From positions 806,001 through 870,000 of the forward strand of contig CAIIXF020000001.1 of the NCBI GenBank assembly GCA_903813345.2: 64,000 bases of DNA, read 5' to 3'. A model generated the notes under the pieces. It was not told the DNA's origin and did no database searches. It was given only the letters and a program-made list of their open reading frames with translations. Both the position numbers and the translations under genes were made by a program. This document shows, in pieces, positions 18,651-55,164 of this stretch. Every line of letters begins with the position of its first letter. Positions within the stretch are counted from its first letter, which is position 1. This stretch comes from Owenia fusiformis (taxonomy: Eukaryota).

Positions 18651-20006
18651 TTATTATGTCCCCACCACATAGTGTGGGGCCATATTGTCGGCCTAGGCGC
18701 GTCTGTCTGTCCGTCTGTCCGTATGTCCGTCTGTCCGTCCGTCCGTCCGTCCGTACGTCCGGCAGTTTTCTCCAAAACCGCTACAGATATCACCTTCAAA
18801 TTTTCAGGGATAACTTATGAGTGCATCTAGATGTGGATGAAAAAAATTTAACTCGATACCTACTTCCTGTCGGCCATTTTGAAGTCAAATGCTAAAATCC
18901 TTGTCTGTAAGCTTTAAGAAAAACGGCTTCACAGTTGCTTTTAAAACTTTAAAATCTTGTTCAGCTCACTTCATTCTAGATCTGATAAGGTTTTGGACCT
19001 GTTAGCTCAGTCATGTCAGCCATTTTGAATGTTTTAAGAAAAGTTAGCGCACGATAATACTTTGTATCATATTGAATGGTGTTTTTCAGTTTTCATACTT
19101 TAACTATTTAGTAGCTTTATAAACAATTTCAGGTGTACTTTGTTGTAAAAGCCTATGTTATTGTTAACAGTAGTTATATGTGATAATTTTGTAAAAAGAA
19201 ATCAGCAAAAACTCATAATCACTTTTTTATTGTCGGCCATTTTGGATTTTTCCGTCCTAAAATATTGTCTGTAAAGTCTTGTCTACGCGTTTTTAGGTGA
19301 ACCGTTTGGTAGATCAATTTCATAGTTTCAGGGATGATTCTTAGTATGAAAATCTAGATCTGATTAGTTTTTTGGCATTCTGGATAAATGTCAAGGCAGC
19401 CATTTTGGATTTTCTGTCTTAAAATCTTGCCTGTAAAGTCTTGTCTACGCGTTTTTAGGTGAACCGTTTGGTAGATCAATTTCATAGTTTCAGGGATGAT
19501 TCTTAGTATGAAAATCTAGATCTGATTAGTTTTTGGGCATTCTGGGTAAATGTCAAGGCAGCCATTTTGGATTTTCTGTCCTAAAATCTTGTCTGTTAAG
19601 TTTTGTCTACGCATTTCCAGGTGAACCATTTGGTAGATCAATTTCAAATTTTCAGGGATGATTCTTAGTATGAAAATCTAGAAGAGATTAGTTTTTTGGC
19701 ATTCTGGATAAATGTCAAGGCAGCCATTTTGGATTTTCCGTCCTAAAATCTTGTTTGTAAAGTCTTGTTTACATGTTTTCTGGTTAACTGTGTGAGGGAT
19801 CAATTTCAAATTTTCAGGGTTGGTTCTTAGTATGAAAATCTAGAACTGACTAATTCTTTGGCATTCTGGGTAAATTCTATGGTGGCCATTTTGGATATTC
19901 TGTCCTCAAATTGTGTCGGTAAAGTCTTGTCTACTCATTTTTAGGGTAACCATTTGACGGGATCACCCATAGGTGGGGACATTTTGTACACATTTGTGTT
20001 CTTGTT
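18651..20006 (+). mobile_element. Non-autonomous Helentron-associated (HINE/DINE-1/pearl-like) element with internal 162-bp tandem repeats
   Basis: 5' ATGTCCCCCAC...GTGGGG hairpin/subterminal IR, then a (GTCY)n microsatellite at ~18700-18740. About 4.5 copies of a 162-bp unit (GCCATTTTGG at 19236, 19399, 19561, 19723, 19885). Ends with 3' GTGGGGACAT, a short hairpin and CTTGTT. Confidence 0.75.
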
Positions 20007-36593: not shown

Positions 36594-36714
36594 TTAAGAA
36601 GTATATCGCATGGCGTAGAATAAAAGAGAGGTTAAGCACCCCGGGTTAAGCACTGAGACATCGTTTTTATGACGTTAACCGCAAACGTAAACCTTTACAT
36701 TCCCGTTTACGAAC

Positions 36715-39285
36715 TGTCACGACCCTCGTGTGGTAGCGTGGTTTGAGGGTCTTAAACAGAATACAGTCTAAGAGTCAATAGTTTGATTTGAATCTTAATT
36801 AATTTAGTTTCGGGACAAGTTCAAGTAAAAGTTGAAATGTGTATCCCTTTCTAATTGAACAACATCCGTGTTCACAGTATCATAACAAAATGGGATCAAA
36901 TTGGGATAAATTTTGCGATGAAAATTTAGGGATAAATTCTGGGATAAATTTTCCGATGAAAATGTAGGGATAAATTAGGGATAAATTCTGGGATAAAAAT
37001 AATTGGGATGAAGTGGGACAATTTCGGGATAACAGTTACGGGATAACAAAATCTGAATATAGACTAAGTAAGATTTGTCAGTTTTCAATGTAAGTTGTAT
37101 GTCTCATAAAGGCGAATGGCAACAGACTCCAGATTCTGAATGTGCCCAGTGTTCAGTTGTATCAAATAAGTATAATGTTAGGGTGTGAGTATAACCAGGT
37201 GGAAGTCCTAGCCACTTGAGGGCTACGATGGACTTCAAGCTGTATATTAAGCTCGCTGTTCACACTTAAGAACTAAAGTAGGGCCATTTCAAATCACAGC
37301 CTGTCAAACTCACTAGGGTGAATGAAATTCTCACTAATATTATCTGATTATCAATAAGACATGTAAGACAAGGGTTAAATAAGAAAGTAAGATCCTGGAT
37401 TGTACTTTAGCTCTGCACTATTGCATAGTTTCTGGGGAAATATATGTATGACTTATTGCGAGTGATTGTTATTCAAAGAAGCCCTTAGCAAATATGAGCT
37501 AAGATAAAGCTTGTTGCTTGAATGTTAGTATCACTAAAGTCACCTGGAATTTAGTCGGAATCTATTTTGAATCCAGAATCTACTTCAGATAAAATGAGGG
37601 GGGGGGATTTTCTAACATATATATAAAAAACAATCGAACACAACAAGTGATATTCTGTGGATTTTTATATAATGTATAAAAACGACTCTATTTCTATTTA
37701 TTAATCTACACAAACATTACACAATTCAGTACTGTCGAGATGGTATATCAAGTAAATAATCTCTCAAACCAAACATGCATAAAACAGCACAGTTAATGGA
37801 AGTTCAGTTAAACAATTTGCAATAAAGCCTACAACGTGTCTTTTTCCAAAAATGTAACTCAACAGTGCAATTTTATATCATCCCTGGTGGGGTTGAAATC
37901 AGCTCTCTATACCACTCACATGAAAAGTAGATAATCATTTTGCCACTATCAGACTATGGTACAATTGGCAAACAAATGGGAAACAGTATTTTAAAAGTAT
38001 TCTAGTATCTATAATGAATTAGAATGTGATTAACATAGAATTAGACCAGACATGGAAAACTAGAAGGGGAGGGGGTGTCTTAAGTCCGAAAATGGGGTTC
38101 GAATGACAATGACCCTTAAAAGTACTTCAATGATGTTTGATAATGGTCCCATAAGCCCGGGATTTCACCTTTTAATTACCCAGAATTTAACATACAAATA
38201 TACAAAGGAGTATTTCTAGTGTATCAATAAAATTTACCCTGTGAACAAACTAAATACAGTCCCAAATTGGATGGGGGGGGGGGAATGTCGTATAGAGGTG
38301 TCTATGAACCCCAGGAATTTGCAGTTGACTCTGGTTTAGAGCAAGTTACATAGGTACGTAAAGACCGTAACTTTTCGTACACCTTGTCAAATATTCCTAA
38401 ACGATTCCCTGTGGGGATGTTGTATAAAAGGTTTCAACGAACCCAGGGAACTTGCTTTCGACGCTGGTTAAAAAGTTACATAGGTTCTTTAAGACAAAAA
38501 CTCTGCGGGTAACTTTGTGTTAACCTTGTCAAATGTTCCTTAACAATCCCTGGGACAATTTAAACATGGGATGTTCACAAGGCAAATAAATAAAATTAAG
38601 GAAAAAATCAAGTGTACAGATACTTCTTTTCAAAGACCAGAACTCTGCAAAAATACAATTAAATCAAGTCAATTACCTTTACCAACTCGTACACCTAAGT
38701 TGGTTTACCTGAGGCAATATAAATATCCAATTTTAGTGACGATTTAATGTTTAAAATTCCACAAAATGTTTTCCATGTCTGGCCGGCTTGAATTCGAATC
38801 ATAAAAGCCCAGAAAAAGACAATTCACTTAAATCGTGCTTATTTACTTAAATCAAGCTTAATAAGCCTCACTTTGGATTTTGAAACAAACCCAGACAACT
38901 GCCCTTTCTAAAAAGTTTGTAACATAACATTAAAAATGAAACTGGGCCTACAACATTCACATTAAAGTCTTATTATGAACAAAATATATATGTTGACATT
39001 AATCCTGTAAATAATATTACATTAAAATCACAAGAGAAGGTTAGTAAAAATAAATATAAATATAAATATAGAGTAAAATGATTAAACTCTAACCATACTT
39101 TAAGAGTATAGCCAAAGTAGAAATACTGACTACCCTTTTACAGAATTTAAATTATTTTATAACTCTTTAAATATTGAGTAACTAAAAGCACAATTGATAA
39201 AGTGAAGAGCAAAAAGTTGAACAAAGTGACAATCCTTCAAGGCAATTCCATTACCATGCTCAAAGTAATCTGAAGGATCGTCACA
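36715..39285 (-). repeat. LTR 1 (2571 bp; 3'-most on the element strand)
   Basis: TGTCACGA...TCGTCACA. Differs from LTR2/3 by at least 2 SNPs, an 8-bp insertion (~37345) and poly-G lengths. Confidence 0.93.
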
Positions 39286-39298
39286 CTGCTCCCTCTTT
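39286..39298 (-). other. Polypurine tract (also at 47612-47624)
   Basis: Minus strand reads TTCGAGGACGAACTGTTTTT-AAAGAGGGAGCAG directly abutting the LTR TG. Confidence 0.8.
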
Positions 39299-40989
39299 AA
39301 AAACAGTTCGTCCTCGAACTATGAAATTATAAAGATGAAAAATCATAAACAAACACATTACCTAAAATAAGCATTTCACACATCATTTACAACATAGTAC
39401 TTAGTAAAGGAATTGATAAACATATATACACAATAAAGTTTTAATGTATAATCAGTTTACTACTTAATAAACGTAAGTCTAAATCAAATACAATGTTAGT
39501 TTACACTTTTCTCGATTTCTCACCTGAAATACATAACATAAAAAGGCTTGCATAATCTAATAAACAATCACGTTTAATTACAAAAAAATGTCTCTAGCAG
39601 CATCAGTGTCTTTCATCTTTCTCTTGTAGGTCATGGTTCTTGTGAAGGGTTGAAGTAATATCCATACTTTCTGCACTAAGTTTATCAAACATTCTTACCA
39701 TCACATTCATTGATGATACAGTCATTGTCACTGGTTTCCCACTATAATAGGGGAATGTGTTTAGTATTTGGCATGGTCTCTAGTACAATATAAAATTGAG
39801 ATTGTCAGCCATTCTTTGTGTCCTTCCTCAAAATGCAGAGTCATCACAAAGCTGCAGAATCAATTCTCATACGTATAGGGTACATGTCTCTGTTCATAAG
39901 CCTTAATTCCCAATATCGTCGCTTCATGGGGTACACCAAATAAGTCACGTTAATCGAACAGCAATCATGATAGTGTTCATCTGTTCAGATTACTTTTATA
40001 TAGCATAGTGTACAATATTCATTAGGTTGAAGGTCATCACTTGGTTCATGCTGGGCTGGAATAAAAGTTTTACAGTCCTGGAAATAAGACTGGTTGTTCA
40101 CATAGTACAATAATACATTTTGAATATCACACATGTGATATGAATTGGCCAAAAAATAAAGGGTTATCAAATGAAATTGAATCAATCAAACGTATCTTCA
40201 AGATATATCCTTTCACAAACAGTTTCCAATTGGAAGGATTCAGATAATATCTCATAACATTTGTACTGAGAATGATTCAACTTCAGTCACCATTGCCCTT
40301 TTGGTACAAAGGCAGTTAGGGAGGCGAGGTAGGATTCAAACTTAATGGGCACATCCATTGCAGTGGATGGGGTCACAAGCTGGGACAGTTGCTTGAAAGT
40401 GGAACTGGGGGTATGAGGGGAACCTACAGTCAGTAGTAGGGAAACACTTCAAAGAGGAAATGGACAGAGCTCTTGTCCATCGTGGCACTCACCCCCAGAG
40501 GGTCACAAGTTCGTCCACCTCATTTAAACAGAAGCAGGGACAAAACTATAATATTGCAATGTCCTTTGGATTTCAATAGACCTGTTCCTCAAAGCGTAAA
40601 CAGGCTTCGTGTCTGTAAACATTGGTTGATCAGGCCAATGTTCACAATGAACCCCATTGCTTGAGTAAAGCAGGTCACTGGTAATCCAGAACATATCGAC
40701 AATCAAATAATGCCCTGTCTGTGGTCATGTCATCACTACCACTGAGCATTGTAGTTTAAGCTTATCAGGAATCAAAGCTTCAACAGCTCAGGACATCTGG
40801 TAGACATAAGATGAGAAACATCAGGAATGGGACAGGAATGCTTCAGTAAAGAAAAATAAAATTAGTTTTTTTCTCTTACATTCACATCAAACACATATCG
40901 TTTCACCAGCCACTCTTTGGAAGGATATGATGTACCTGTGGTGGCTTGGACTTACTTTACAGATACATTCATGCAAGTTATCTTAAAAG

Positions 40990-43900
40990 CTAACTTAGCC
41001 TACCCTTAAGGGAGGGGCAGGCATTTACACAGTGAGTGTCCTGGGCACAATAGAAGCATACTGTTGCTCCAGGAACTTTGGAGTTTGGATGTCTTTTGGT
41101 ACAATCAAATACTGAATGACTCCCAGAGTCACATATTTTACAGTATTTTCTTTTCAGTTTGGAATCAGGTTTCTTCTTTGTTATAGTTTGAGTCAGATTT
41201 CTGGCTAAAGCCTTTATCTTTTGTTCAACTATTTCCATCACATCACTCTCAGAAAGAGATAATGAGGTAGATGAGTTAACCTGAGCAGGAGTTGGAGTAG
41301 CACATATACCAGGGTCTTGGAAACTTTCAAGTCTATTCTTTCTTCCCCTGAAGAAAGCCTCATATTGTAAAGCCATGGTAAGAGCTTCATTGAGGGTTTT
41401 AGGGTTAGAAAAAGAAAGCTTGGATTCCAGTTCTTCATTATTCAAAGCATCAATGAAGGCCTGTGTAGCTAGGTCATCAATTGTCTTCTTTGACATGCTT
41501 GACATCCCAAAAGCTTGTCTTGACAATTTTCTTATATCATGGGCTAACTTTTCAAGAGGCTCATTATTTCCCCTGAACTTATGTTTAAGCTCGGCACGGG
41601 CATGGTTACTTTGTTCAGGGGGTTCATAGTTAATTTTCAGGACATTTATGATATTAGCTAAGGTTGGCAGGTCTTCATCATCCAAATCATCTAAAACATT
41701 GACAGCCTCTCCTTCAAGACTCCTCACCATAAAGATGGCAGATTCTTCATCTGTCCAACCATTTATGTTAGAGACAAGTCTAAATTGGATAAGAAAAGCT
41801 GAGAGACTGCACTTTCCATTGAAAAGTGGTGCTTTCATTTCCTTTCTAGAAAACGAATTACCTCTTCTTTGCTTTTCAACTCCAGTATAGGATTCCTGAT
41901 CAGATGTATTAGGACTGGATATAAACAGATCATTGGGTTTTTCAATCTGTCTGTAGAGACCAGGGGAACTTGGATTCACTTTTGATCTACTCATAACTGT
42001 AGATCTAAGGGTTGGAAAACTATTTTCCACAGCAGATTCATACTCATCAGAATTATTCATATAGTAAAATGGCCTTTGGCTTGTTTTTGTATGGTAAGAT
42101 GGGCATTTCATACTATATTCGACATTATCTGGGTCAGAAAAGTCAACAGCGGTTTCATATTCTGGAGAGGGGAATAGTGATTCAGCTTCAGAGGATCTAG
42201 TATAATCCTCATTTACCCTCTGTTTGAAGGAGAATTGTTGACAAGGTGTGTACCCATTACTAGCATCCTGGGCTGATATCTCATAGGAGGGCAAGGCACT
42301 TCTGTTATGGCCAGGTATTTGACCATCAAGCCATGAACGTGTCTCCAAATGTGAATCATATGTTTGATCAACACTTTTGGGTAGACAATATGGCTGTCTG
42401 CAATTGGCAGAAAACTCAGTGCTTTGAGATGATTTGTCTGATAAACTGAACATATCAGATTTATCAACAACTTGGATTTTGCAAGGAGGGGATTTACTAG
42501 ATTCACATAAAACTCCATCATTAGGCCTCTTTAAATCTTGTCTACAAAGGGTACTTTCGGGTTGATGCATACATTCATAACTTTTAGACTTAATGTCCGA
42601 GAATGGAACAGTCTGCTCAGTTAAAAATTCAGCATGTTTCAACTTGTTAGGTTCACTTAATTGAGTAATCTCTTTTGTTACTTTAGGGACATTTGGAAGC
42701 TGGAAATCCCTGTTGAGATCATACGACTCATCAAGTGATAGTGCCTCTTTAGGCAAACCTCTTGTGTATTTAAGGTCATTACACATTGAGAGTGGTATTC
42801 TATCAGATGGGATCAGTAAAGAGCTTTGCAAAGTCTGTTTTAACAGTTCACTCCAATATGCTTCCTGGAGCATGTCACTCTCATGAGGTACTGGTAGCAC
42901 CGGAGGAAGGGGTGGAACCTGGTAGTTGACTTGCACATCCTTTACTACTCCCATTTTGCTAGAATGACCTAACAAATCATAGTTTGGCTTTGTATAGTTA
43001 TCTTTTCTCTCTTGTTTGACATTAATTGGGGACTTCAGTGTCAAATCACGGGAATGAGAGAAATCTGGGGTCTTTGGTCTAAATCTGGGAATGTCAGTTA
43101 TTTTAATTGGGGGAAGTAAGGGTCTAAATGGAGAGGACTGAAATTTGTTTGGCCAGCTCTGTGGCTCACTTTTCTGATTCGCAGTTGGTAATAGAGGAGA
43201 AGTATGCATTGAATGTTTGCTTGGGTTTGAATCAGAAAAACTGCCATGACTTGCAGATCTTCCATGAGTAGAAACCTTTGTGGATGTCATTAAACCCTGT
43301 CCAGACTTTCTACCAGCTGTATGAGTAGATGCACTGGACGGCTTACCAGGGTAAGCATGAGGGTGTGTTTGGACATCTAAGGGTTTTCTAGATTGGAATG
43401 TTCCCCTTGTTGACAGTTTTTCCAATGGCTTTTGCAATTCAGAGGACTTTACAATTTGAGAATCACTTTTCCTTTCATACTTAGGGTGTAAAATTCTTTG
43501 ATCATTAGGCCCTAAATCCGTTTTTAAATAGGGGGCTAAACTGAGGGGTGAAAAAGCTTGTTTAGCAGTAGCTCCTGTTCCATAGGCTGGAAGAGGCTTT
43601 AAAGGAGATGTTTTGGATAGCATTCCCCCATAAGCACCTATCAGGGGTTCCCTTTCATGGAACCCAGGTGCACCAGTTATGGGGGGTTCATATGCCCCAC
43701 CTCTACTACTCACACTTTTTTCACCATTTTTTGAAAATACCAAATTCATGTCACTTTTTGGGTCTTTAGTCTCCTGCTTAACCATTTTAAGCAGGGGATT
43801 AAACAACCTACCCTTGGGAAGTTGTCTAGGCATATCTAACCGAAATTTAGGAATGCTCGTCAATTTGACAGGCGGAGAAACCTTAAAATATGGTCTCTTT

Positions 43901-44142
43901 AATTGGGGTGGTGTAGTTGCTGATGATTCAAGTGGAAGTGTATCGTCTTGAGCCAATTTCAACTCTTGTTCATTAAGGTGTTGATGGCCCAATACAACTT
44001 CAGAATCATCAAACCACCCGGGGACAATATTGTCAAAAGCTTCCGCCTGTGATTTTTGGCTAGATAAGGGTCTTTCAGTGGATTCGGACATGGCTAATGG
44101 GGTGCGCTTTGCGAGATTAAAGATGTCCGACTTTTCCGACAT
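40990..44142 (-). CDS. Giant Gag-like protein (1050 aa), copy 1
   Basis: Intronless ORF. C-terminal Gypsy-like capsid region (PLFNGK..L..FLIQF...NGWTDEE...L.GEA; F..AL....L...L....PKTL.EA...A) and two CX2CX4HX4C knuckles (CKICDSGSHSVFDC, CFYCAQDTHCVNAC). Confidence 0.9.
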   Translation of the reverse strand: MSEKSDIFNLAKRTPLAMSESTERPLSSQKSQAEAFDNIVPGWFDDSEVVLGHQHLNEQELKLAQDDTLPLESSATTPPQLKRPYFKVSPPVKLTSIPKFRLDMPRQLPKGRLFNPLLKMVKQETKDPKSDMNLVFSKNGEKSVSSRGGAYEPPITGAPGFHEREPLIGAYGGMLSKTSPLKPLPAYGTGATAKQAFSPLSLAPYLKTDLGPNDQRILHPKYERKSDSQIVKSSELQKPLEKLSTRGTFQSRKPLDVQTHPHAYPGKPSSASTHTAGRKSGQGLMTSTKVSTHGRSASHGSFSDSNPSKHSMHTSPLLPTANQKSEPQSWPNKFQSSPFRPLLPPIKITDIPRFRPKTPDFSHSRDLTLKSPINVKQERKDNYTKPNYDLLGHSSKMGVVKDVQVNYQVPPLPPVLPVPHESDMLQEAYWSELLKQTLQSSLLIPSDRIPLSMCNDLKYTRGLPKEALSLDESYDLNRDFQLPNVPKVTKEITQLSEPNKLKHAEFLTEQTVPFSDIKSKSYECMHQPESTLCRQDLKRPNDGVLCESSKSPPCKIQVVDKSDMFSLSDKSSQSTEFSANCRQPYCLPKSVDQTYDSHLETRSWLDGQIPGHNRSALPSYEISAQDASNGYTPCQQFSFKQRVNEDYTRSSEAESLFPSPEYETAVDFSDPDNVEYSMKCPSYHTKTSQRPFYYMNNSDEYESAVENSFPTLRSTVMSRSKVNPSSPGLYRQIEKPNDLFISSPNTSDQESYTGVEKQRRGNSFSRKEMKAPLFNGKCSLSAFLIQFRLVSNINGWTDEESAIFMVRSLEGEAVNVLDDLDDEDLPTLANIINVLKINYEPPEQSNHARAELKHKFRGNNEPLEKLAHDIRKLSRQAFGMSSMSKKTIDDLATQAFIDALNNEELESKLSFSNPKTLNEALTMALQYEAFFRGRKNRLESFQDPGICATPTPAQVNSSTSLSLSESDVMEIVEQKIKALARNLTQTITKKKPDSKLKRKYCKICDSGSHSVFDCTKRHPNSKVPGATVCFYCAQDTHCVNACPSLKGRLS

Positions 44143-44160
44143 TGTTGATTACAGTTAATG

Positions 44161-44934
44161 CACACACGGGAATTTCGCGTCATAATTATTCCTCCGCTTG
44201 GTGCGCTGTTGTGCATAGCAACGTCCTATGCAACGTGTATAAACATCGCGCGGACGTATAAGTACAACCCGTCAGTTTTTCATGTTTGCAATGAAATTTT
44301 CTATTCAGATAGGTGTTTTAAACTATGATTTTCTTTCATAATATATATTGTTAGATAGGCATGATACATATCATCGTGTTTCTAAAGAATTGCTTATTTT
44401 AATCCTGTTTATTTCAAGTTGATAGGTTCAATATTAGTAAAGTTACGGCTTCACTATGGAGGGGCAATTTCTTCGTAAACTAAAAACCGCATCGTCAGCA
44501 AAGATTTGACGAAAACACAACATTTTTTGCGCCGGTGGCATTTTTTCATTTATGGATGAATCTTTATCAAATTTGAAACATGTTTGAGCTAAATATACAA
44601 ATTGTGTCTTGGCCGAGGCGGAATTTTAAAATTCAAATTACAATTAGAGAAAAAATAGCTAACATGTGTCAAGTTTTACCGCTGATTTTCGAAAAAAATA
44701 TGATGTAATTCCTTATAGAGATGGAAGAAAACGAATTGTTTAAACTGCACAGGATAAAAATATATTAATCCAGATACATGTAAGCTTTATATACAAATCA
44801 TTACATACGTTAAAGGGCATCATCAACTACTAGAAAATCGTGTGTAAAGTTGGACAATATTTGACCCGAATTGACCGGCAAAATGGCCGCGCGCTCGCAA
44901 TAGGAATAATTATGACGCGAAATTCCCGGGTGTG
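44161..44934. mobile_element. CACTA/EnSpm (CMC)-like MITE inserted in the gag leader of unit 1
   Basis: 33-bp TIR CACAC(A/C)CGGGAATTTCGCGTCATAATTATTCCT with a 2-bp TG duplication. The empty site (TTAATG|ATCTCG) is visible in unit 2 at ~52486. Confidence 0.85.
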
Positions 44935-45048
44935 TGATCTCGCTTTGAATATTAATGAGTGAAAATTAGCATAAACGTAAGTAATGGCGTTAAACTGGGC
45001 TTGGGTCAGTACGTCAAGTATTACATCACACCGCTAGGCCAACATTTC

Positions 45049-47611
45049 TGTCACGACCCTCGTGTGGTAGCGTGGTTTGAGGGTCGTAAACAGAATACAG
45101 TCTAAGAGTCAATAGTTTGATTTGAATCTTAATTAATTTAGTTTCGGGACAAGTTCAAGTAAAAGTTGAAATGTGTATCCCTTTCTAATTGAACAACATC
45201 CGTGTTCACAGTATCATAACATAATGGGATCAAATTGGGATAAATTTTGCGATGAAAATTTAGGGATAAATTCTGGGATAAATTTTCCGATGAAAATGTA
45301 GGGATAAATTAGGGATAAATTCTGGGATAAAAATAATTGGGATGAAGTGGGACAATTTCGGGATAACAGTTACGGGATAACAAAATCTGAATATAGACTA
45401 AGTAAGATTTGTCAGTTTTCAATGTAAGTTGTATGTCTCATAAAGGCGAATGGCAACAGACTCCAGATTCTGAATGTGCCCAGTGTTCAGTTGTATCAAA
45501 TAAGTATAATGTTAGGGTGTGAGTATAACCAGGTGGAAGTCCTAGCCACTTGAGGGCTACGATGGACTTCAAGCTGTATATTAAGCTCGCTGTTCACACT
45601 TAAGAACTAAAGTAGGGCCATTTCAAATCACAGCCTGTCAAACTCACTAGGGTGAATGAAATTCTCACTAATATTATCAATAAGACATGTAAGACAAGGG
45701 TTAAATAAGAAAGTAAGATCCTGGATTGTACTTTAGCTCTGCACTATTGCATAGTTTCTGGGGAAATATATGTATGACTTATTGCGAGTGATTGTTATTC
45801 AAAGAAGCCCTTAGCAAATATGAGCTAAGATAAAGCTTGTTGCTTGAATGTTAGTATCACTAAAGTCACCTGGAATTTAGTCGGAATCTATTTTGAATCC
45901 AGAATCTACTTCAGATAAAATGAGGGGGGGGGGATTTTCTAACATATATATAAAAAACAATCGAACACAACAAGTGATATTCTGTGGATTTTTATATAAT
46001 GTATAAAAACGACTCTATTTCTATTTATTAATCTACACAAACATTACACAATTCAGTACTGTCGAGATGGTATATCAAGTAAATAATCTCTCAAACCAAA
46101 CATGCATAAAACAGCACAGTTAATGGAAGTTCAGTTAAACAATTTGCAATAAAGCCTACAACGTGTCTTTTTCCAAAAATGTAACTCAACAGTGCAATTT
46201 TATATCATCCCTGGTGGGGTTGAAATCAGCTCTCTATACCACTCACATGAAAAGTAGATAATCATTTTGCCACTATCAGACTATGGTACAATTGGCAAAC
46301 AAATGGGAAACAGTATTTTAAAAGTATTCTAGTATCTATAATGAATTAGAATGTGATTAACATAGAATTAGACCAGACATGGAAAACTAGAAGGGGAGGG
46401 GGTGTCTTAAGTCCGAAAATGGGGTTCGAATGACAATGACCCTTAAAAGTACTTCAATGATGTTTGATAATGGTCCCATAAGCCCGGGATTTCACCTTTT
46501 AATTACCCAGAATTTAACATACAAATATACAAAGGAGTATTTCTAGTGTATCAATAAAATTTACCCTGTGAACAAACTAAATACAGTCCCAAATTGGATG
46601 GGGGGGGGGAATGTCGTATAGAGGTGTCTATGAACCCCAGGAATTTGCAGTTGACTCTGGTTTAGAGCAAGTTACATAGGTACGTAAAGACCGTAACTTT
46701 TCGTACACCTTGTCAAATATTCCTAAACGATTCCCTGTGGGGATGTTGTATAAAAGGTTTCAACGAACCCAGGGAACTTGCTTTCGACGCTGGTTAAAAA
46801 GTTACATAGGTTCTTTAAGACAAAAACTCTGCGGGTAACTTTGTGTTAACCTTGTCAAATGTTCCTTAACAATCCCTGGGACAATTTAAACATGGGATGT
46901 TCACAAGGCAAATAAATAAAATTAAGGAAAAAATCAAGTGTACAGATACTTCTTTTCAAAGACCAGAACTCTGCAAAAATACAATTAAATCAAGTCAATT
47001 ACCTTTACCAACTCGTACACCTAAGTTGGTTTACCTGAGGCAATATAAATATCCAATTTTAGTGACGATTTAATGTTTAAAATTCCACAAAATGTTTTCC
47101 ATGTCTGGCCGGCTTGAATTCGAATCATAAAAGCCCAGAAAAAGACAATTCACTTAAATCGTGCTTATTTACTTAAATCAAGCTTAATAAGCCTCACTTT
47201 GGATTTTGAAACAAACCCAGACAACTGCCCTTTCTAAAAAGTTTGTAACATAACATTAAAAATGAAACTGGGCCTACAACATTCACATTAAAGTCTTATT
47301 ATGAACAAAATATATATGTTGACATTAATCCTGTAAATAATATTACATTAAAATCACAAGAGAAGGTTAGTAAAAATAAATATAAATATAAATATAGAGT
47401 AAAATGATTAAACTCTAACCATACTTTAAGAGTATAGCCAAAGTAGAAATACTGACTACCCTTTTACAGAATTTAAATTATTTTATAACTCTTTAAATAT
47501 TGAGTAACTAAAAGCACAATTGATAAAGTGAAGAGCAAAAAGTTGAACAAAGTGACAATCCTTCAAGGCAATTCCATTACCATGCTCAAAGTAATCTGAA
47601 GGATCGTCACA
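45049..47611 (-). repeat. LTR 2 (shared middle LTR, 2563 bp)
   Basis: Same TGTCACGA...TCGTCACA sequence, with the PBS-side leader on the left and the PPT on the right. Confidence 0.93.
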
Positions 47612-49315
47612 CTGCTCCCTCTTTAAAAACAGTTCGTCCTCGAACTATGAAATTATAAAGATGAAAAATCATAAACAAACACATTACCTAAAATAAGCAT
47701 TTCACACATCATTTACAACATAGTACTTAGTAAAGGAATTGATAAACATATATACACAATAAAGTTTTAATGTATAATCAGTTTACTACTTAATAAACGT
47801 AAGTCTAAATCAAATACAATGTTAGTTTACACTTTTCTCGATTTCTCACCTGAAATACATAACATAAAAAGGCTTGCATAATCTAATAAACAATCACGTT
47901 TAATTACAAAAAAATGTCTCTAGCAGCATCAGTGTCTTTCATCTTTCTCTTGTAGGTCATGGTTCTTGTGAAGGGTTGAAGTAATATCCATACTTTCTGC
48001 ACTAAGTTTATCAAACATTCTTACCATCACATTCATTGATGATACAGTCATTGTCACTGGTTTCCCACTATAATAGGGGAATGTGTTTAGTATTTGGCAT
48101 GGTCTCTAGTACAATATAAAATTGAGATTGTCAGCCATTCTTTGTGTCCTTCCTCAAAATGCAGAGTCATCACAAAGCTGCAGAATCAATTCTCATACGT
48201 ATAGGGTACATGTCTCTGTTCATAAGCCTTAATTCCCAATATCGTCGCTTCATGGGGTACACCAAATAAGTCACGTTAATCGAACAGCAATCATGATAGT
48301 GTTCATCTGTTCAGATTACTTTTATATAGCATAGTGTACAATATTCATTAGGTTGAAGGTCATCACTTGGTTCATGCTGGGCTGGAATAAAAGTTTTACA
48401 GTCCTGGAAATAAGACTGGTTGTTCACATAGTACAATAATACATTTTGAATATCACACATGTGATATGAATTGGCCAAAAAATAAAGGGTTATCAAATGA
48501 AATTGAATCAATCAAACGTATCTTCAAGATATATCCTTTCACAAACAGTTTCCAATTGGAAGGATTCAGATAATATCTCATAACATTTGTACTGAGAATG
48601 ATTCAACTTCAGTCACCATTGCCCTTTTGGTACAAAGGCAGTTAGGGAGGCGAGGTAGGATTCAAACTTAATGGGCACATCCATTGCAGTGGATGGGGTC
48701 ACAAGCTGGGACAGTTGCTTGAAAGTGGAACTGGGGGTATGAGGGGAACCTACAGTCAGTAGTAGGGAAACACTTCAAAGAGGAAATGGACAGAGCTCTT
48801 GTCCATCGTGGCACTCACCCCCAGAGGGTCACAAGTTCGTCCACCTCATTTAAACAGAAGCAGGGACAAAACTATAATATTGCAATGTCCTTTGGATTTC
48901 AATAGACCTGTTCCTCAAAGCGTAAACAGGCTTCGTGTCTGTAAACATTGGTTGATCAGGCCAATGTTCACAATGAACCCCATTGCTTGAGTAAAGCAGG
49001 TCACTGGTAATCCAGAACATATCGACAATCAAATAATGCCCTGTCTGTGGTCATGTCATCACTACCACTGAGCATTGTAGTTTAAGCTTATCAGGAATCA
49101 AAGCTTCAACAGCTCAGGACATCTGGTAGACATAAGATGAGAAACATCAGGAATGGGACAGGAATGCTTCAGTAAAGAAAAATAAAATTAGTTTTTTTCT
49201 CTTACATTCACATCAAACACATATCGTTTCACCAGCCACTCTTTGGAAGGATATGATGTACCTGTGGTGGCTTGGACTTACTTTACAGATACATTCATGC
49301 AAGTTATCTTAAAAG

Positions 49316-52300
49316 CTAACTTAGCCTACCCTTAAGGGAGGGGCAGGCATTTACACAGTGAGTGTCCTGGGCACAATAGAAGCATACTGTTGCTCCAGGA
49401 ACTTTGGAGTTTGGATGTCTTTTGGTACAATCAAATACTGAATGACTCCCAGAGTCACATATTTTACAGTATTTTCTTTTCAGTTTGGAATCAGGTTTCT
49501 TCTTTGTTATAGTTTGAGTCAGATTTCTGGCTAAAGCCTTTATCTTTTGTTCAACTATTTCCATCACATCACTCTCAGAAAGAGATAATGAGGTAGATGA
49601 GTTAACCTGAGCAGGAGTTGGAGTAGCACATATACCAGGGTCTTGGAAACTTTCAAGTCTATTCTTTCTTCCCCTGAAGAAAGCCTCATATTGTAAAGCC
49701 ATGGTAAGAGCTTCATTGAGGGTTTTAGGGTTAGAAAAAGAAAGCTTGGATTCCAGTTCTTCATTATTCAAAGCATCAATGAAGGCCTGTGTAGCTAGGT
49801 CATCAATTGTCTTCTTTGACATGCTTGACATCCCAAAAGCTTGTCTTGACAATTTTCTTATATCATGGGCTAACTTTTCAAGAGGCTCATTATTTCCCCT
49901 GAACTTATGTTTAAGCTCGGCACGGGCATGGTTACTTTGTTCAGGGGGTTCATAGTTAATTTTCAGGACATTTATGATATTAGCTAAGGTTGGCAGGTCT
50001 TCATCATCCAAATCATCTAAAACATTGACAGCCTCTCCTTCAAGACTCCTCACCAAAAAGATGGCAGATTCTTCATCTGTCCAACCATTTATGTTAGAGA
50101 CAAGTCTAAATTGGATAAGAAAAGCTGAGAGACTGCACTTTCCATTGAAAAGTGGTGCTTTCATTTCCTTTCTAGAAAACGAATTACCTCTTCTTTGCTT
50201 TTCAACTCCAGTATAGGATTCCTGATCAGATGTATTAGGACTGGATATAAACAGATCATTGGGTTTTTCAATCTGTCTGTAGAGACCAGGGGAACTTGGA
50301 TTCACTTTTGATCTACTCATAACTGTAGATCTAAGGGTTGGAAAACTATTTTCCACAGCAGATTCATACTCATCAGAATTATTCATATAGTAAAATGGCC
50401 TTTGGCTTGTTTTTGTATGGTAAGATGGGCATTTCATACTATATTCGACATTATCTGGGTCAGAAAAGTCAACAGCGGTTTCATATTCTGGAGAGGGGAA
50501 TAGTGATTCAGCTTCAGAGGATCTAGTATAATCCTCATTTACCCTCTGTTTGAAGGAGAATTGTTGACAAGGTGTGTACCCATTACTAGCATCCTGGGCT
50601 GATATCTCATAGGAGGGCAAGGCACTTCTGTTATGGCCAGGTATTTGACCATCAAGCCATGAACGTGTCTCCAAATGTGAATCATATGTTTGATCAACAC
50701 TTTTGGGTAGACAATATGGCTGTCTGCAATTGGCAGAAAACTCAGTGCTTTGAGATGATTTGTCTGATAAACTGAACATATCAGATTTATCAACAACTTG
50801 GATTTTGCAAGGAGGGGATTTACTAGATTCACATAAAACTCCATCATTAGGCCTCTTTAAATCTTGTCTACAAAGGGTACTTTCGGGTTGATGCATACAT
50901 TCATAACTTTTAGACTTAATGTCCGAGAATGGAACAGTCTGCTCAGTTAAAAATTCAGCATGTTTCAACTTGTTAGGTTCACTTAATTGAGTAATCTCTT
51001 TTGTTACTTTAGGGACATTTGGAAGCTGGAAATCCCTGTTGAGATCATACGACTCATCAAGTGATAGTGCCTCTTTAGGCAAACCTCTTGTGTATTTAAG
51101 GTCATTACACATTGAGAGTGGTATTCTATCAGATGGGATCAGTAAAGAGCTTTGCAAAGTCTGTTTTAACAGTTCACTCCAATATGCTTCCTGGAGCATG
51201 TCACTCTCATGAGGTACTGGTAGCACCGGAGGAAGGGGTGGAACCTGGTAGTTGACTTGCACATCCTTTACTACTCCCATTTTGCTAGAATGACCTAACA
51301 AATCATAGTTTGGCTTTGTATAGTTATCTTTTCTCTCTTGTTTGACATTAATTGGGGACTTCAGTGTCAAATCACGGGAATGAGAGAAATCTGGGGTCTT
51401 TGGTCTAAATCTGGGAATGTCAGTTATTTTAATTGGGGGAAGTAAGGGTCTAAATGGAGAGGACTGAAATTTGTTTGGCCAGCTCTGTGGCTCACTTTTC
51501 TGATTCGCAGTTGGTAATAGAGGAGAAGTATGCATTGAATGTTTGCTTGGGTTTGAATCAGAAAAACTGCCATGACTTGCAGATCTTCCATGAGTAGAAA
51601 CCTTTGTGGATGTCATTAAACCCTGTCCAGACTTTCTACCAGCTGTATGAGTAGATGCACTGGACGGCTTACCAGGGTAAGCATGAGGGTGTGTTTGGAC
51701 ATCTAAGGGTTTTCTAGATTGGAATGTTCCCCTTGTTGACAGTTTTTCCAATGGCTTTTGCAATTCAGAGGACTTTACAATTTGAGAATCACTTTTCCTT
51801 TCATACTTAGGGTGTAAAATTCTTTGATCATTAGGCCCTAAATCCGTTTTTAAATAGGGGGCTAAACTGAGGGGTGAAAAAGCTTGTTTAGCAGTAGCTC
51901 CTGTTCCATAGGCTGGAAGAGGCTTTAAAGGAGATGTTTTGGATAGCATTCCCCCATAAGCACCTATCAGGGGTTCCCTTTCATGGAACCCAGGTGCACC
52001 AGTTATGGGGGGTTCATATGCCCCACCTCTACTACTCACACTTTTTTCACCATTTTTTGAAAATACCAAATTCATGTCACTTTTTGGGTCTTTAGTCTCC
52101 TGCTTAACCATTTTAAGCAGGGGATTAAACAACCTACCCTTGGGAAGTTGTCTAGGCATATCTAACCGAAATTTAGGAATGCTCGTCAATTTGACAGGCG
52201 GAGAAACCTTAAAATATGGTCTCTTTAATTGGGGTGGTGTAGTTGCTGATGATTCAAGTGGAAGTGTATCGTCTTGAGCCAATTTCAACTCTTGTTCATT

Positions 52301-52468
52301 AAGGTGTTGATGGCCCAATACAACTTCAGAATCATCAAACCACCCGGGGACAATATTGTCAAAAGCTTCCGCCTGTGATTTTTGGCTAGATAAGGGTCTT
52401 TCAGTGGATTCGGACATGGCTAATGGGGTGCGCTTTGCGAGATTAAAGATGTCCGACTTTTCCGACAT
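49316..52468 (-). CDS. Giant Gag-like protein (1050 aa), copy 2
   Basis: The protein matches copy 1 except SAIFMVRS vs SAIFLVRS (nt 41730 vs 50056). Confidence 0.9.
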   Translation of the reverse strand: MSEKSDIFNLAKRTPLAMSESTERPLSSQKSQAEAFDNIVPGWFDDSEVVLGHQHLNEQELKLAQDDTLPLESSATTPPQLKRPYFKVSPPVKLTSIPKFRLDMPRQLPKGRLFNPLLKMVKQETKDPKSDMNLVFSKNGEKSVSSRGGAYEPPITGAPGFHEREPLIGAYGGMLSKTSPLKPLPAYGTGATAKQAFSPLSLAPYLKTDLGPNDQRILHPKYERKSDSQIVKSSELQKPLEKLSTRGTFQSRKPLDVQTHPHAYPGKPSSASTHTAGRKSGQGLMTSTKVSTHGRSASHGSFSDSNPSKHSMHTSPLLPTANQKSEPQSWPNKFQSSPFRPLLPPIKITDIPRFRPKTPDFSHSRDLTLKSPINVKQERKDNYTKPNYDLLGHSSKMGVVKDVQVNYQVPPLPPVLPVPHESDMLQEAYWSELLKQTLQSSLLIPSDRIPLSMCNDLKYTRGLPKEALSLDESYDLNRDFQLPNVPKVTKEITQLSEPNKLKHAEFLTEQTVPFSDIKSKSYECMHQPESTLCRQDLKRPNDGVLCESSKSPPCKIQVVDKSDMFSLSDKSSQSTEFSANCRQPYCLPKSVDQTYDSHLETRSWLDGQIPGHNRSALPSYEISAQDASNGYTPCQQFSFKQRVNEDYTRSSEAESLFPSPEYETAVDFSDPDNVEYSMKCPSYHTKTSQRPFYYMNNSDEYESAVENSFPTLRSTVMSRSKVNPSSPGLYRQIEKPNDLFISSPNTSDQESYTGVEKQRRGNSFSRKEMKAPLFNGKCSLSAFLIQFRLVSNINGWTDEESAIFLVRSLEGEAVNVLDDLDDEDLPTLANIINVLKINYEPPEQSNHARAELKHKFRGNNEPLEKLAHDIRKLSRQAFGMSSMSKKTIDDLATQAFIDALNNEELESKLSFSNPKTLNEALTMALQYEAFFRGRKNRLESFQDPGICATPTPAQVNSSTSLSLSESDVMEIVEQKIKALARNLTQTITKKKPDSKLKRKYCKICDSGSHSVFDCTKRHPNSKVPGATVCFYCAQDTHCVNACPSLKGRLS

Positions 52469-52598
52469 TGTTGATTACAGTTAATGATCTCGCTTTGAAT
52501 ATTAATGAGTGAAAATTAGCATAAACGTAAGTAATGGCGTTAAACTGGGCTTGGGTCAGTACGTCAAGTATTACATCACACCGCTAGGCCAACATTTC

Positions 52599-55164
52599 TG
52601 TCACGACCCTCGTGTGGTAGCGTGGTTTGAGGGTCGTAAACAGAATACAGTCTAAGAGTCAATAGTTTGATTTGAATCTTAATTAATTTAGTTTCGGGAC
52701 AAGTTCAAGTAAAAGTTGAAATGTGTATCCCTTTCTAATTGAACAACATCCGTGTTCACAGTATCATAACATAATGGGATCAAATTGGGATAAATTTTGC
52801 GATGAAAATTTAGGGATAAATTCTGGGATAAATTTTCCGATGAAAATGTAGGGATAAATTAGGGATAAATTCTGGGATAAAAATAATTGGGATGAAGTGG
52901 GACAATTTCGGGATAACAGTTACGGGATAACAAAATCTGAATATAGACTAAGTAAGATTTGTCAGTTTTCAATGTAAGTTGTATGTCTCATAAAGGCGAA
53001 TGGCAACAGACTCCAGATTCTGAATGTGCCCAGTGTTCAGTTGTATCAAATAAGTATAATGTTAGGGTGTGAGTATAACCAGGTGGAAGTCCTAGCCACT
53101 TGAGGGCTACGATGGACTTCAAGCTGTATATTAAGCTCGCTGTTCACACTTAAGAACTAAAGTAGGGCCATTTCAAATCACAGCCTGTCAAACTCACTAG
53201 GGTGAATGAAATTCTCACTAATATTATCAATAAGACATGTAAGACAAGGGTTAAATAAGAAAGTAAGATCCTGGATTGTACTTTAGCTCTGCACTATTGC
53301 ATAGTTTCTGGGGAAATATATGTATGACTTATTGCGAGTGATTGTTATTCAAAGAAGCCCTTAGCAAATATGAGCTAAGATAAAGCTTGTTGCTTGAATG
53401 TTAGTATCACTAAAGTCACCTGGAATTTAGTCGGAATCTATTTTGAATCCAGAATCTACTTCAGATAAAATGAGGGGGGGGGGATTTTCTAACATATATA
53501 TAAAAAACAATCGAACACAACAAGTGATATTCTGTGGATTTTTATATAATGTATAAAAACGACTCTATTTCTATTTATTAATCTACACAAACATTACACA
53601 ATTCAGTACTGTCGAGATGGTATATCAAGTAAATAATCTCTCAAACCAAACATGCATAAAACAGCACAGTTAATGGAAGTTCAGTTAAACAATTTGCAAT
53701 AAAGCCTACAACGTGTCTTTTTCCAAAAATGTAACTCAACAGTGCAATTTTATATCATCCCTGGTGGGGTTGAAATCAGCTCTCTATACCACTCACATGA
53801 AAAGTAGATAATCATTTTGCCACTATCAGACTATGGTACAATTGGCAAACAAATGGGAAACAGTATTTTAAAAGTATTCTAGTATCTATAATGAATTAGA
53901 ATGTGATTAACATAGAATTAGACCAGACATGGAAAACTAGAAGGGGAGGGGGTGTCTTAAGTCCGAAAATGGGGTTCGAATGACAATGACCCTTAAAAGT
54001 ACTTCAATGATGTTTGATAATGGTCCCATAAGCCCGGGATTTCACCTTTTAATTACCCAGAATTTAACATACAAATATACAAAGGAGTATTTCTAGTGTA
54101 TCAATAAAATTTACCCTGTGAACAAACTAAATACAGTCCCAAATTGGATGGGGGGGGGGGGGAATGTCGTATAGAGGTGTCTATGAACCCCAGGAATTTG
54201 CAGTTGACTCTGGTTTAGAGCAAGTTACATAGGTACGTAAAGACCGTAACTTTTCGTACACCTTGTCAAATATTCCTAAACGATTCCCTGTGGGGATGTT
54301 GTATAAAAGGTTTCAACGAACCCAGGGAACTTGCTTTCGACGCTGGTTAAAAAGTTACATAGGTTCTTTAAGACAAAAACTCTGCGGGTAACTTTGTGTT
54401 AACCTTGTCAAATGTTCCTTAACAATCCCTGGGACAATTTAAACATGGGATGTTCACAAGGCAAATAAATAAAATTAAGGAAAAAATCAAGTGTACAGAT
54501 ACTTCTTTTCAAAGACCAGAACTCTGCAAAAATACAATTAAATCAAGTCAATTACCTTTACCAACTCGTACACCTAAGTTGGTTTACCTGAGGCAATATA
54601 AATATCCAATTTTAGTGACGATTTAATGTTTAAAATTCCACAAAATGTTTTCCATGTCTGGCCGGCTTGAATTCGAATCATAAAAGCCCAGAAAAAGACA
54701 ATTCACTTAAATCGTGCTTATTTACTTAAATCAAGCTTAATAAGCCTCACTTTGGATTTTGAAACAAACCCAGACAACTGCCCTTTCTAAAAAGTTTGTA
54801 ACATAACATTAAAAATGAAACTGGGCCTACAACATTCACATTAAAGTCTTATTATGAACAAAATATATATGTTGACATTAATCCTGTAAATAATATTACA
54901 TTAAAATCACAAGAGAAGGTTAGTAAAAATAAATATAAATATAAATATAGAGTAAAATGATTAAACTCTAACCATACTTTAAGAGTATAGCCAAAGTAGA
55001 AATACTGACTACCCTTTTACAGAATTTAAATTATTTTATAACTCTTTAAATATTGAGTAACTAAAAGCACAATTGATAAAGTGAAGAGCAAAAAGTTGAA
55101 CAAAGTGACAATCCTTCAAGGCAATTCCATTACCATGCTCAAAGTAATCTGAAGGATCGTCACA
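52599..55164 (-). repeat. LTR 3 (2566 bp; 5'-most on the element strand)
   Basis: Ends TCGTCACA followed by the GAAC target duplication and unique flank. Confidence 0.93.

Follow-up and report, generated by a model that had tools for sequence, protein, structure and literature searches.

The 64,000-nucleotide stretch of Owenia fusiformis DNA analysed here (hereafter the window) carries on its minus strand a tandem array of a very young LTR retroelement, in which gag is the only long open reading frame. The array spans window positions 36715-55164 and is arranged LTR-internal-LTR-internal-LTR; self-BLAST and a repeat search returned the same three-copy register. Taken as a whole, the element is probably a non-autonomous Ty3/Gypsy derivative that has kept gag, has lost protease, reverse transcriptase, RNase H and integrase, and borrows these functions in trans. 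Because it has no reverse transcriptase of its own, it can be called only a derivative, with its assignment to Ty3/Gypsy made via Gag. A host exon within the window matches an Owenia fusiformis protein at 98% identity; the host is therefore an annelid, consistent with the animal origin proposed in a preliminary description of this DNA.

The life cycle that we infer would run as follows: RNA would be transcribed from the 5' LTR and packaged by the element's own Gag, either alone or co-assembling with the Gag-Pol of a helper. The enzymes for reverse transcription and integration were probably borrowed from a relative, which would be an autonomous Ty3/Gypsy element elsewhere in the genome. Once the element had inserted, unequal recombination between LTRs, on sister chromatids or homologues, would have generated the LTR-I-LTR-I-LTR arrangement and, later still, a small transposon with terminal inverted repeats would have entered one leader.

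Structure and age of the array

Self-BLAST matched 36714-44160 to 45048-52486 (99.8% over 7448), 44935-47611 to 52485-55164 (99.9% over 2680), and 36714-39285 to 52598-55164 (99.5% over 2575). Together with alignment, these matches place the 5' LTR at 52599-55164 (2566 bp), the middle LTR, common to both units, at 45049-47611 (2563 bp), and the 3' LTR at 36715-39285 (2571 bp), all on the minus strand. Each copy starts with TGTGACG and ends with GTGACA (TG...CA). The LTR alignment has 2575 columns, 14 of which differ: a poly-C run accounts for 3 of them, and the rest are 2 substitutions and two indels, of 1 bp and 8 bp. The length of the poly-C run is the sole difference between the 5' and middle LTRs; the two substitutions and both indels distinguish the 3' LTR from the other two.

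The outer ends of the array are flanked by a perfect 4-bp target-site duplication, GTTC, read directly on the minus strand (upstream copy at 55165-55168, matched by the downstream copy at 36711-36714); a random 4-bp match would occur with a chance of 1/256. The duplication and the near-identical LTRs identify the locus as a genuine integration event. A polypurine tract (PPT), AAAGAGGGAGCAG, adjoins the downstream LTR in both units (minus strand, 47612-47624 in the upstream unit and, identically, 39286-39298 in the downstream unit), and a Logan contig shows the LTR start continuous with the PPT. The preliminary description, which had listed three near-identical LTRs of ~2.57 kb, a PPT and a 4-bp duplication, was thus accurate, and the element is a structurally complete LTR retroelement. 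A single unit measures ~10.1 kb. Its first 2.57-kb LTR is followed by a leader of 129 nt and by gag (3.15 kb), and a non-coding stretch of 1.7 kb then leads to the PPT and the second LTR.

A candidate primer binding site (PBS), TGGCCTAGCGG, was read directly on the minus strand at 52581-52591 (the counterpart in the downstream unit is at 45031-45041); it is a TGG-initiated motif located 7 nt past the 5' LTR. The 64-kb window contains no tRNA genes, and the LTR contains no complement of at least 9 nt that would indicate a self-priming PBS. The 5' LTR contains the only AATAAA of the LTR sequence (window position 53579); TATA-like motifs occur in it at LTR positions 125 and 296, and 38-bp tandem repeats cluster close to its 3' end. 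A search of 47000-56200 against Rfam returned no matches at E<=0.1, and the LTR is therefore not derived from a small RNA in the manner of Cassandra. No solo LTRs or further copies were found elsewhere in the window (blastn, E<=1e-3).

The insertion is very young, as had been claimed: the outer LTRs differ by 2 substitutions in 2575 columns, and the two internal regions by 1 substitution in 4987 bp. Alignment of the units revealed one further difference between the internal regions, absent from the preliminary description: a 776-bp insertion at 44161-44936 (strand not assigned) that only the downstream unit carries in its leader. The insertion is bounded by terminal inverted repeats of 32 bp, which pair with 1 mismatch, and a CA dinucleotide is repeated where it joins the leader; by these sequence features it resembles a DNA transposon of the MITE type, separate from the retroelement.

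Two units that differ by one substitution and one presence/absence insertion are also what two alleles would look like. The three-LTR tandem might then be an assembly artefact, in which two haplotypes of one element, with and without the 776-bp insertion, were stitched together via the 2.57-kb LTR. The LTR is too long for short reads to span, and the middle and 5' LTRs agree at every informative site, a pattern that a true crossover fits equally well. However, no mark of a join is present within the window, and unequal recombination ordinarily yields shared-LTR tandems, as described for the plant TRIM Wukong and for Cassandra in the available portions of PMC4528315 and PMC7215508, respectively. 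We consider the artefact unlikely. The conclusion that the element is Gag-only is the same under either arrangement.

The gag reading frame and its relatives

Among the ORFs that overlap 34000-58000, just two reach 150 aa, and both are the minus-strand gag of 1050 aa, located at 49316-52468 in the upstream unit (stop codon at 49316-49318) and at 40990-44142 in the downstream unit. At this base composition, 1050 open codons would arise by chance with a probability of ~1e-29, and the other five frames across gag contain 42-144 stops. Residue 805 is the sole position at which the two Gag copies differ (M in one, L in the other).

The last ~290 residues are true Gag, with a two-lobed capsid fold and two CCHC knuckles. 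The capsid (CA) domain, which has an N lobe and a C lobe, lies at residues ~773-941 (49646-50152, minus strand; 41320-41826 in the other unit). It is followed by a nucleocapsid (NC) region with zinc knuckles of the pattern CX2CX4HX4C at residues 1001-1014 and 1029-1042 (49343-49468, minus strand; 41017-41142 in the other unit), and the gag stop falls 8 residues past the second knuckle. Residues 1 to ~760 are Ser/Pro-rich. This N-terminal part had no BLAST match among 166 relatives, no internal repeat at E<=1, and no usable Atlas match. Of the earlier proposal that each unit encodes a 1050-aa Gag, the intact ORFs and the presence of a real Gag stand, while recognisable Gag is confined to the last ~290 residues.

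Searches with the full 1050-aa protein returned little: Pfam gave nothing beyond one sub-threshold zinc-knuckle match, and phmmer against PDB gave no matches. A word-indexed protein search restricted to lengths of 577-1838 aa yielded none among 8000 candidates, the exact sequence was absent from a collection of 15 billion proteins, and a scan of metagenome contigs with the single protein produced 116 pattern matches and no relatives. When the last 290 aa alone were used in an exhaustive phmmer search, 4052 matches were obtained at E<=1e-3, 1462 of them at E<=1e-10 and the best at 2.9e-38 with 34% identity. Among 14 relatives scanned, Retrotrans_gag was detected at E<=0.01 in 7 (1 above the Pfam cutoff) and zf-CCHC in 10.

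A profile built from 25 sequences matched Ty3 Gag in PDB at 9e-5. The same profile found 13 longer proteins, Gag-Pol fusions among them, with PF00078 in 9 and PF00665 in 7. Several of the 13 are single Gag-Pol ORFs, and the motifs in such relatives run in the order DTGA, YLDD/YIDD, and an integrase-like segment. In tblastn, Gag-Pol relatives matched the CA region with E of 1e-14 to 1e-21. Judged by this homology to the Gag of PR-RT-RNaseH-IN polyproteins, the lineage is of Ty3/Gypsy type; the Gypsy affinity suggested earlier is upheld by the Ty3/Gypsy-type Gag-Pol relatives that the profile search recovered.

The AF2 model of the CA domain has two lobes and a mean pLDDT of 83.5. Its top Foldseek matches were the capsids of PNMA2, Arc, dArc1, and Ty3. 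In a VIA structure search, all 50 of the matches listed were retroelement capsids, the best of these being the C-terminal domain of PEG10 CA (Z 10.6, with an rmsd of 2.4 across 85 residues).

The 3' region without pol and the wider family

Between gag and the PPT lies a 1.7-kb non-coding region on the minus strand (47625-49315; equivalent to 39299-40989). The six-frame HMM check of 39286-40992 detected no Pfam families in any of the six frames at E<=10, and tblastn with 8 Gag-Pol relatives gave no matches to the 1.7-kb region at E<=10. Neither search, then, found a reverse transcriptase belonging to the element. The sense frames contain 28-45 stops each, and the longest open stretch is 66 codons. 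These results confirm the earlier statement that neither a long ORF nor recognisable pol follows gag. Fresh pol debris would still show in so young an insertion; the pol-less layout is thus most likely older than the insertion.

Other members of the family were sought in data under the same species label, comprising DNA reads (X24), RNA reads (X21 and X22) and Logan contigs (X1). The DNA reads covered the 3' region to a depth of ~16-26 and CA-NC to ~20-30; across the LTR, depth varied between ~16 and 80. Agreement was only 0.43 among the 63 DNA reads that run past the LTR end at 55164, and the LTR therefore has many different flanks. Of 3799 placed reads, 3574 fit in part only, 2647 are just 90-95% alike, and at many positions all reads differ from the window; the sequenced individual therefore carries relatives rather than the present copy. 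The gag, 3' and LTR sequences thus occur in several diverged copies. Short reads do not link gag to the 3' region in these copies, and some of them may carry pol. The multi-copy family put forward in the preliminary description is supported by these related sequences and heterogeneous LTR flanks. Read depth was rejected as a firm measure of copy number; the adjacent flank is itself repetitive and a single-copy baseline is missing.

The lack of pol could also have another origin: an internal deletion, at the time of insertion or later, may have stripped pol from one autonomous Gypsy copy, with the pol-less form never transposing. A pol-bearing ancestor is certain, since Gag relatives are often single Gag-Pol ORFs; the present element is the sole pol-less copy known here; and Logan contigs contain variant joints, with skips of 837, 341 and 207 bp involving the 5' part of gag and the leader, so deletions do happen in the family. 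Such a deletion, if simple, would, however, have had to excise the PR-to-IN segment precisely while leaving a non-coding tail of unusual length, and no trace of pol at E<=10 persists in the 1.7 kb past gag despite the youth of the insertion. Sequences resembling the tail (90-95%) also occur at about capsid-region depth in another individual, which marks the tail as a repeated component of the family and an old one. A dead-end deletion of this kind appears improbable to us.

RNA reads over gag were few and biased in strand. The first-mate-on-plus mean was ~1.3 as compared to 0.6 for the other orientation in X21, and ~1.0 as compared to 0.14 across 11 bins in X22. This bias is consistent with minus-strand RNA if the libraries are of the usual stranded kind. 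Reads at least 99% alike to the window copy numbered only 12 of 468 (X21) and 17 of 375 (X22); the signal is a family-level one.

Transcription of family members with a strand bias, a 1050-codon ORF intact in both units, and a lineage-specific extension of 760 aa would all fit a Gag retained for host benefit or through host dependence, with mobility secondary, as proposed for zebrafish Bik-1/Bik-2 in the portion of PMC12067270 available. Youth alone, however, predicts an intact ORF, and there is no sign of selection between the two gag copies, because they differ by one non-synonymous change only. The family is multi-copy with many flanks, and an orthologous fixed locus is not known. We regard a host function as very improbable, and favour a non-autonomous derivative mobilised in trans.

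A more specific form of the favoured reading, possible but offered tentatively as somewhat short of an even chance, is that the element is an active Gag-only satellite of a spiralian Ty3/Gypsy. Its oversized Gag, in which a 760-aa disordered extension would precede a normal CA-NC module, would co-assemble with the Gag-Pol of the helper and so obtain its enzymes, and might at once interfere with the helper or be nearing co-option by the host.

Significance and comparison with known systems

The Owenia element is a further example of Gag-only LTR elements, an architecture established by plant and vertebrate precedents. The novelty implied earlier was overstated; animals are already known to carry non-autonomous LTR families that encode Gag only, according to the available part of PMC12067270. 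The open-access texts searched contained no description of a Gag-only Ty3/Gypsy-type family from Owenia or another invertebrate.

Capsid-only LTR elements are the retrotransposon counterpart of satellite viruses, and they test how far Gag alone secures packaging with borrowed enzymes. They are also plausible intermediates to domesticated genes for Arc-, PNMA- and PEG10-type capsids, the folds of which are the nearest structural matches to the modelled Owenia CA. A very young, intact copy in a slowly evolving annelid provides a tractable case that is neither vertebrate nor plant; it introduces no new principle. If the satellite reading is true, the element would be to invertebrates, on the Metaviridae side, what TR-GAG is to plants and Bik to zebrafish.

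TR-GAG elements, in the accessible text of Chaparro et al. (2015; PMC4350172), are short (<4 kb) and known from angiosperms and a brown alga, and the TR-GAG HMM of the same source found none in Drosophila. They share with the Owenia element LTRs, a PPT, a candidate PBS, a single Gag ORF, the lack of pol, and presumed mobilisation in trans; the Owenia element stands apart in its annelid host, ~10.1-kb unit (well above 4 kb), 2.57-kb LTRs and 1050-aa Gag. Among vertebrates, the portion of PMC12067270 available describes zebrafish BHIKHARI-1/-2 (Bik-1/2), which are young and polymorphic and have gag without pol or env, and chicken ENS-1, of which it states only that it is the non-autonomous variant of ENS-3 and may encode ERNI. 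These too are non-autonomous animal LTR families, but they are endogenous retroviruses, whereas the Owenia Gag groups with invertebrate Ty3/Gypsy-type Gag-Pol, the comparison with Bik being by description only.

Autonomous Ty3/Gypsy relatives (P0156-P0163) have a homologous CA-NC at 23-30% identity, with profile E down to 6e-81. They likewise share with the Owenia element a duplication of 4 bp and LTRs with TG...CA ends, and the Ty3 capsid structures 6r22 and 6r24 match. The Owenia element differs in having no PR, RT, RNase H or IN and in its 760-aa N-terminal extension; long N-terminal extensions are also present in relatives of 762-862 aa, with no similarity to the Owenia extension by BLAST. 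TRIM and LARD elements are non-autonomous, helper-dependent, and devoid of ORFs, as characterised in the available text of PMC6934838, PMC4528315 and PMC3286476. The shared-LTR tandem, an arrangement that unequal crossing over produces, is a likeness to TRIMs (available portions of PMC4528315 and PMC7215508), but the Owenia element, unlike these non-coding classes, carries a long, intact gag of 1050 aa.

Structure and age of the insertion

Self-BLAST of the window and repeat finding revealed three correspondences: 36714-44160 with 45048-52486 (99.8% over 7448 columns), 44935-47611 with 52485-55164 (99.9%), and 36714-39285 with 52598-55164 (99.5%). Of the ORFs overlapping 34000-58000, just two reach 150 aa; both are 1050 aa long and on the minus strand, so that the element reads from high to low coordinates. 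In that direction it consists of a 5' LTR (52599-55164, 2566 bp), the internal region of the upstream unit (47612-52598), a middle LTR (45049-47611, 2563 bp), the internal region of the downstream unit (39286-45048), and a 3' LTR (36715-39285, 2571 bp), all on the minus strand. It is flanked by the duplication GTTC (minus-strand reading) at 55165-55168 on its 5' side and 36711-36714 on its 3' side. All three LTRs start with TGTGACG and end with GTGACA, and the purine run AAAGAGGGAGCAG adjoins the downstream LTR in both units. This is a bona fide integration event; self-BLAST, repeat finding, and the minus-strand reading agreed exactly with the preliminary description in its extent (36715-55164) and in the 3' region between the gag stop and the polypurine tract (39299-40989). 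A candidate primer-binding site, TGGCCTAGCGG, lies 7 nt beyond the LTR; no tRNA gene was found in the window, no self-priming complement was found for this site, and an Rfam scan of the unit at E <= 0.1 returned no match.

The three LTRs differ at 14 of 2575 aligned columns: a poly-C run accounts for three, and the others come from two substitutions and from indels of 1 and 8 bp. The poly-C run is the sole difference between the 5' and middle LTRs. The two internal regions are set apart by a single substitution, which changes ORF residue 805 from M to L, and by one 776-bp insertion. Because its LTRs and internal regions are nearly identical, the element is very young. The 776-bp insertion (44161-44936), confined to the downstream unit, where it lies within the leader, has 32-bp terminal inverted repeats with one mismatch and a repeated CA at its junction; no further copy was found in the window. 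It is a separate MITE-like DNA transposon that arrived after the element was doubled, and very recently, since it is missing from the otherwise identical other unit.

The three-LTR form may have arisen by unequal LTR-LTR exchange. Every informative site lies in the final 900 bp, and at each of them the middle LTR matches the 5' LTR; a crossover within the first 1680 bp would give this pattern. The data fit a misassembly that fused two haplotypes across the LTR no less well than a real crossover; we consider such an artefact unlikely, and the Gag-only conclusion is unaffected by it.

The preliminary description had placed the element in an animal, which was confirmed by an ELO-family exon in a stop-to-stop frame at about 14698-15201 (+), 98% identical to a protein of the annelid Owenia fusiformis. 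A second ELO (fatty-acid elongase) exon was located at 18046-18429 (+). Satellite-like stretches occupied 6003-14749, 19236-19956, and 60780-61298, with arrays of 19-bp units (93 at 8204-9968 and 172 at 11498-14749), 32-bp units (6604-7052 and 9965-10342), 48-bp units (6003-6546), and 162-bp units (19236-19956); these arrays, together with a 3.3-kb segmental duplication (6665-9968 and 9959-13262, 99.9%), were placed just upstream of the ELO gene. The tandem array at 60780-61298 showed 88-91% identity at ~37-bp offsets in self-BLAST. An open 408-codon frame at 22314-23540 (+), with DDE_Tnp_4 (1.7e-33) and HTH_Tnp_4 domains, is a PIF/Harbinger-type transposase, and a 511-codon frame at 25163-26698 (-), with a YqaJ-like viral recombinase/exonuclease domain (3.4e-20), is probably part of another mobile element.

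The gag reading frame and the 3' region

Chance would leave 1050 codons open at this composition with a probability of ~1e-29, and the other five frames across the ORF contain 42-144 stops. Searched as a whole, the 1050-aa protein (40990-44142 and 49316-52468) yielded a sub-threshold knuckle only in Pfam, no match in a PDB sequence search, and none in a word-indexed search among proteins of similar length. An exhaustive HMMER search of the last 290 aa against 1.84 billion representatives yielded 4052 matches at E <= 1e-3, 1462 at E <= 1e-10, and two at E <= 1e-30 (best 2.9e-38, 34% identity). The relatives, which include a Mytilus coruscus protein, were 210-862 aa long among the best 150 of the 4052 matches. 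Of 14 relatives scanned with Pfam, seven contained Retrotrans_gag at E <= 0.01 (one alone passing the curated cutoff) and ten zf-CCHC. One relative with both domains (P0009) is recorded at NCBI under a bacterial MAG (Sedimenticola sp.) as a hypothetical protein; the sequence is most likely mis-binned animal-host DNA. A 25-sequence Gag profile matched Ty3 Gag (9e-5) and the Copia VLP protein (5e-4) in the PDB.

The AlphaFold model of these 290 residues (mean pLDDT 83.5) has two helical lobes, a long helix, and a lower-confidence tail. Foldseek ranked the PNMA2 capsid first (5e-4), then Arc, dArc1, Ty3, Copia, and retroviral capsids. Retroelement capsids filled all 50 best rows of the VIA re-alignment; at the top were the C-terminal domain of PEG10 CA (Z 10.6, rmsd 2.4 over 85 aligned residues) and dArc1, aligned across both lobes (Z 10.3, 156 residues). 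Such Z values lie under the caution line for helical folds and carry weight only when combined with the sequence data. Two CX2CX4HX4C knuckles follow at residues 1001-1014 and 1029-1042. The ORF is intact and bears CA-NC; its last 290 residues are clearly Gag, and as a whole it is Gag only in part. Residues 1-760, rich in Ser (13%) and Pro (10%), showed no internal repeat, no similarity to the 166 Gag relatives compared, and no lead in an Atlas search. Relatives 762-862 aa in length likewise carry a long extension at the N-terminus, unrelated in sequence to this one. The exact Gag sequence was absent from the protein collections searched, because the O. fusiformis genome paper mentions no repeat annotation other than an automated one and states that TE-like gene models were removed.

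Six-frame translation of 39286-40992, with stops written as X, matched no Pfam family at E <= 10 in any frame, in keeping with the earlier view that this region holds no recognisable pol. Its sense frames are each interrupted by 28-45 stops, leaving open stretches of at most 66 codons. In tblastn, eight Gag-Pol relatives matched by their Gag parts only, at 41101-41976 and 49427-50302 (E 1e-14 to 1e-21). Neither 3' region gave a match at E <= 10, and no match elsewhere in the window was better than E 0.48. In so young an insertion the debris of a recent pol deletion would still be recognisable, and the pol-less layout therefore most likely predates it.

Against longer proteins, the Gag profile gave 13 matches (E 6e-81 to 6e-56), two of them from Mytilus edulis. 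Nine contained PF00078 and seven PF00665, alongside aspartic-protease, RT-RNaseH, and integrase zinc-finger families. Within single ORFs of 1440-1906 aa, DTGA is followed by YLDD/YIDD and then an integrase-like segment, an order of Ty3/Gypsy type. The Gag of the element thus belongs to a Ty3/Gypsy-type lineage of invertebrates; having no RT of its own, the element can be labelled only as a Ty3/Gypsy derivative.

Related copies and transcription

Public runs under the same species label were aligned to 47612-56200. From raw DNA reads (X24, ~18% of the run sampled), 3799 were placed, 123 at least 99% alike, 2647 90-95% alike, and 3574 fitting in part only. At many positions of the 3' region every read disagreed with the letter in the window, so this individual holds diverged relatives but lacks the present copy. 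Summed depth was ~16-26 in the 3' region, 20-30 in the CA-NC part of gag, 3-12 in its N-terminal part, 18-23 over the gag start and leader, and 16-80 in the LTR; for these values the flank, being repeated too, supplies no single-copy baseline. That upstream flank (55648-56200) is repeated in high copy number: its DNA depth is ~75, loose ends at 55875, 55892, and 55934 are sharp, and RNA comes from both strands. If the genome measures ~0.5 Gb, the depth over the internal region would imply a handful of copies. The 63 reads overrunning the LTR end at 55164 had overhangs agreeing at just 0.43, indicating many different flanks.

By short-read depth, the non-coding tail is repeated as much as the capsid region. 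A one-off loss of pol from a complete element is improbable: the tail is itself repeated and diverged, and the absence of pol debris is clean. In Logan contigs of a second run (X1), 1358 of 4156 pieces were at least 99% alike, one contig linked LTR with polypurine tract as expected, and structural variants were evident from several low-depth joints that skipped 200-840 bp in the 5' part of gag and the leader.

RNA runs (X21 and X22, ~6% sampled) covered gag at low depth (0-3) and favoured first-mate-on-plus, a pattern consistent with minus-strand RNA provided that a customary stranded protocol was used. Within the LTR, depth peaked at 9-15 over 53639-54499, mostly first mate on plus, with 6-8 at 54500-54786 and about 0-1 at 52491-53638. 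The peak stops near the sole AATAAA of the LTR (53579), and the drop coincides with a loose end in the DNA reads at 53570 (agreement 0.81 among 55 reads). The signal over 53570-54786 may reflect a long R region or LTR-only transcripts, plus a structural LTR variant in related copies. Only 12 of 468 (X21) and 17 of 375 (X22) RNA reads were at least 99% alike; the transcription can be assigned to the family and not specifically to this locus. The short reads show a family that is multi-copy, dispersed, diversified, and transcribed.

Mobility and known Gag-only elements

The element is a Gag-only non-autonomous LTR retrotransposon. Self-BLAST, ORF, Pfam, and tblastn results upheld the repeat structure and the gag without pol first described. 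The proposed cycle would begin with transcription from the 5' LTR; the RNA would be packaged by the element's own Gag, alone or mixed with helper Gag-Pol, and protease, RT, and integrase would come from a pol-bearing Ty3/Gypsy relative. Retention of Gag for a host role, as proposed for zebrafish BHIKHARI-1/-2 (gag-encoding LTR families without pol or env), would also suit an intact ORF, but youth accounts for that intactness and we regard such a role as very improbable.

The preliminary interpretation is upheld in part: integration, a CA-NC ORF, no detected pol, and related dispersed copies support it. The novelty it suggests is overstated, since Gag-only families are known in animals. No description of a Gag-only Ty3/Gypsy-type family in an invertebrate was found in the open-access literature. 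By their titles, at least 18 of 19 papers using the term TR-GAG deal with plants; its founding paper sets a definition of <4 kb and reports none found in Drosophila (PMC4350172). From animals, Gag-only non-autonomous LTR families are described, and chicken ENS-1, a non-autonomous variant of ENS-3, may encode ERNI (PMC12067270); non-coding non-autonomous LTR elements are reported from mosquitoes (PMC3286476), and TRIMs from bivalves and ants (PMC6934838, PMC3532108). Set beside these, the notable features of the present element are its Ty3/Gypsy affinity, annelid host, 2.57-kb LTRs, 1050-aa Gag, and extreme youth.
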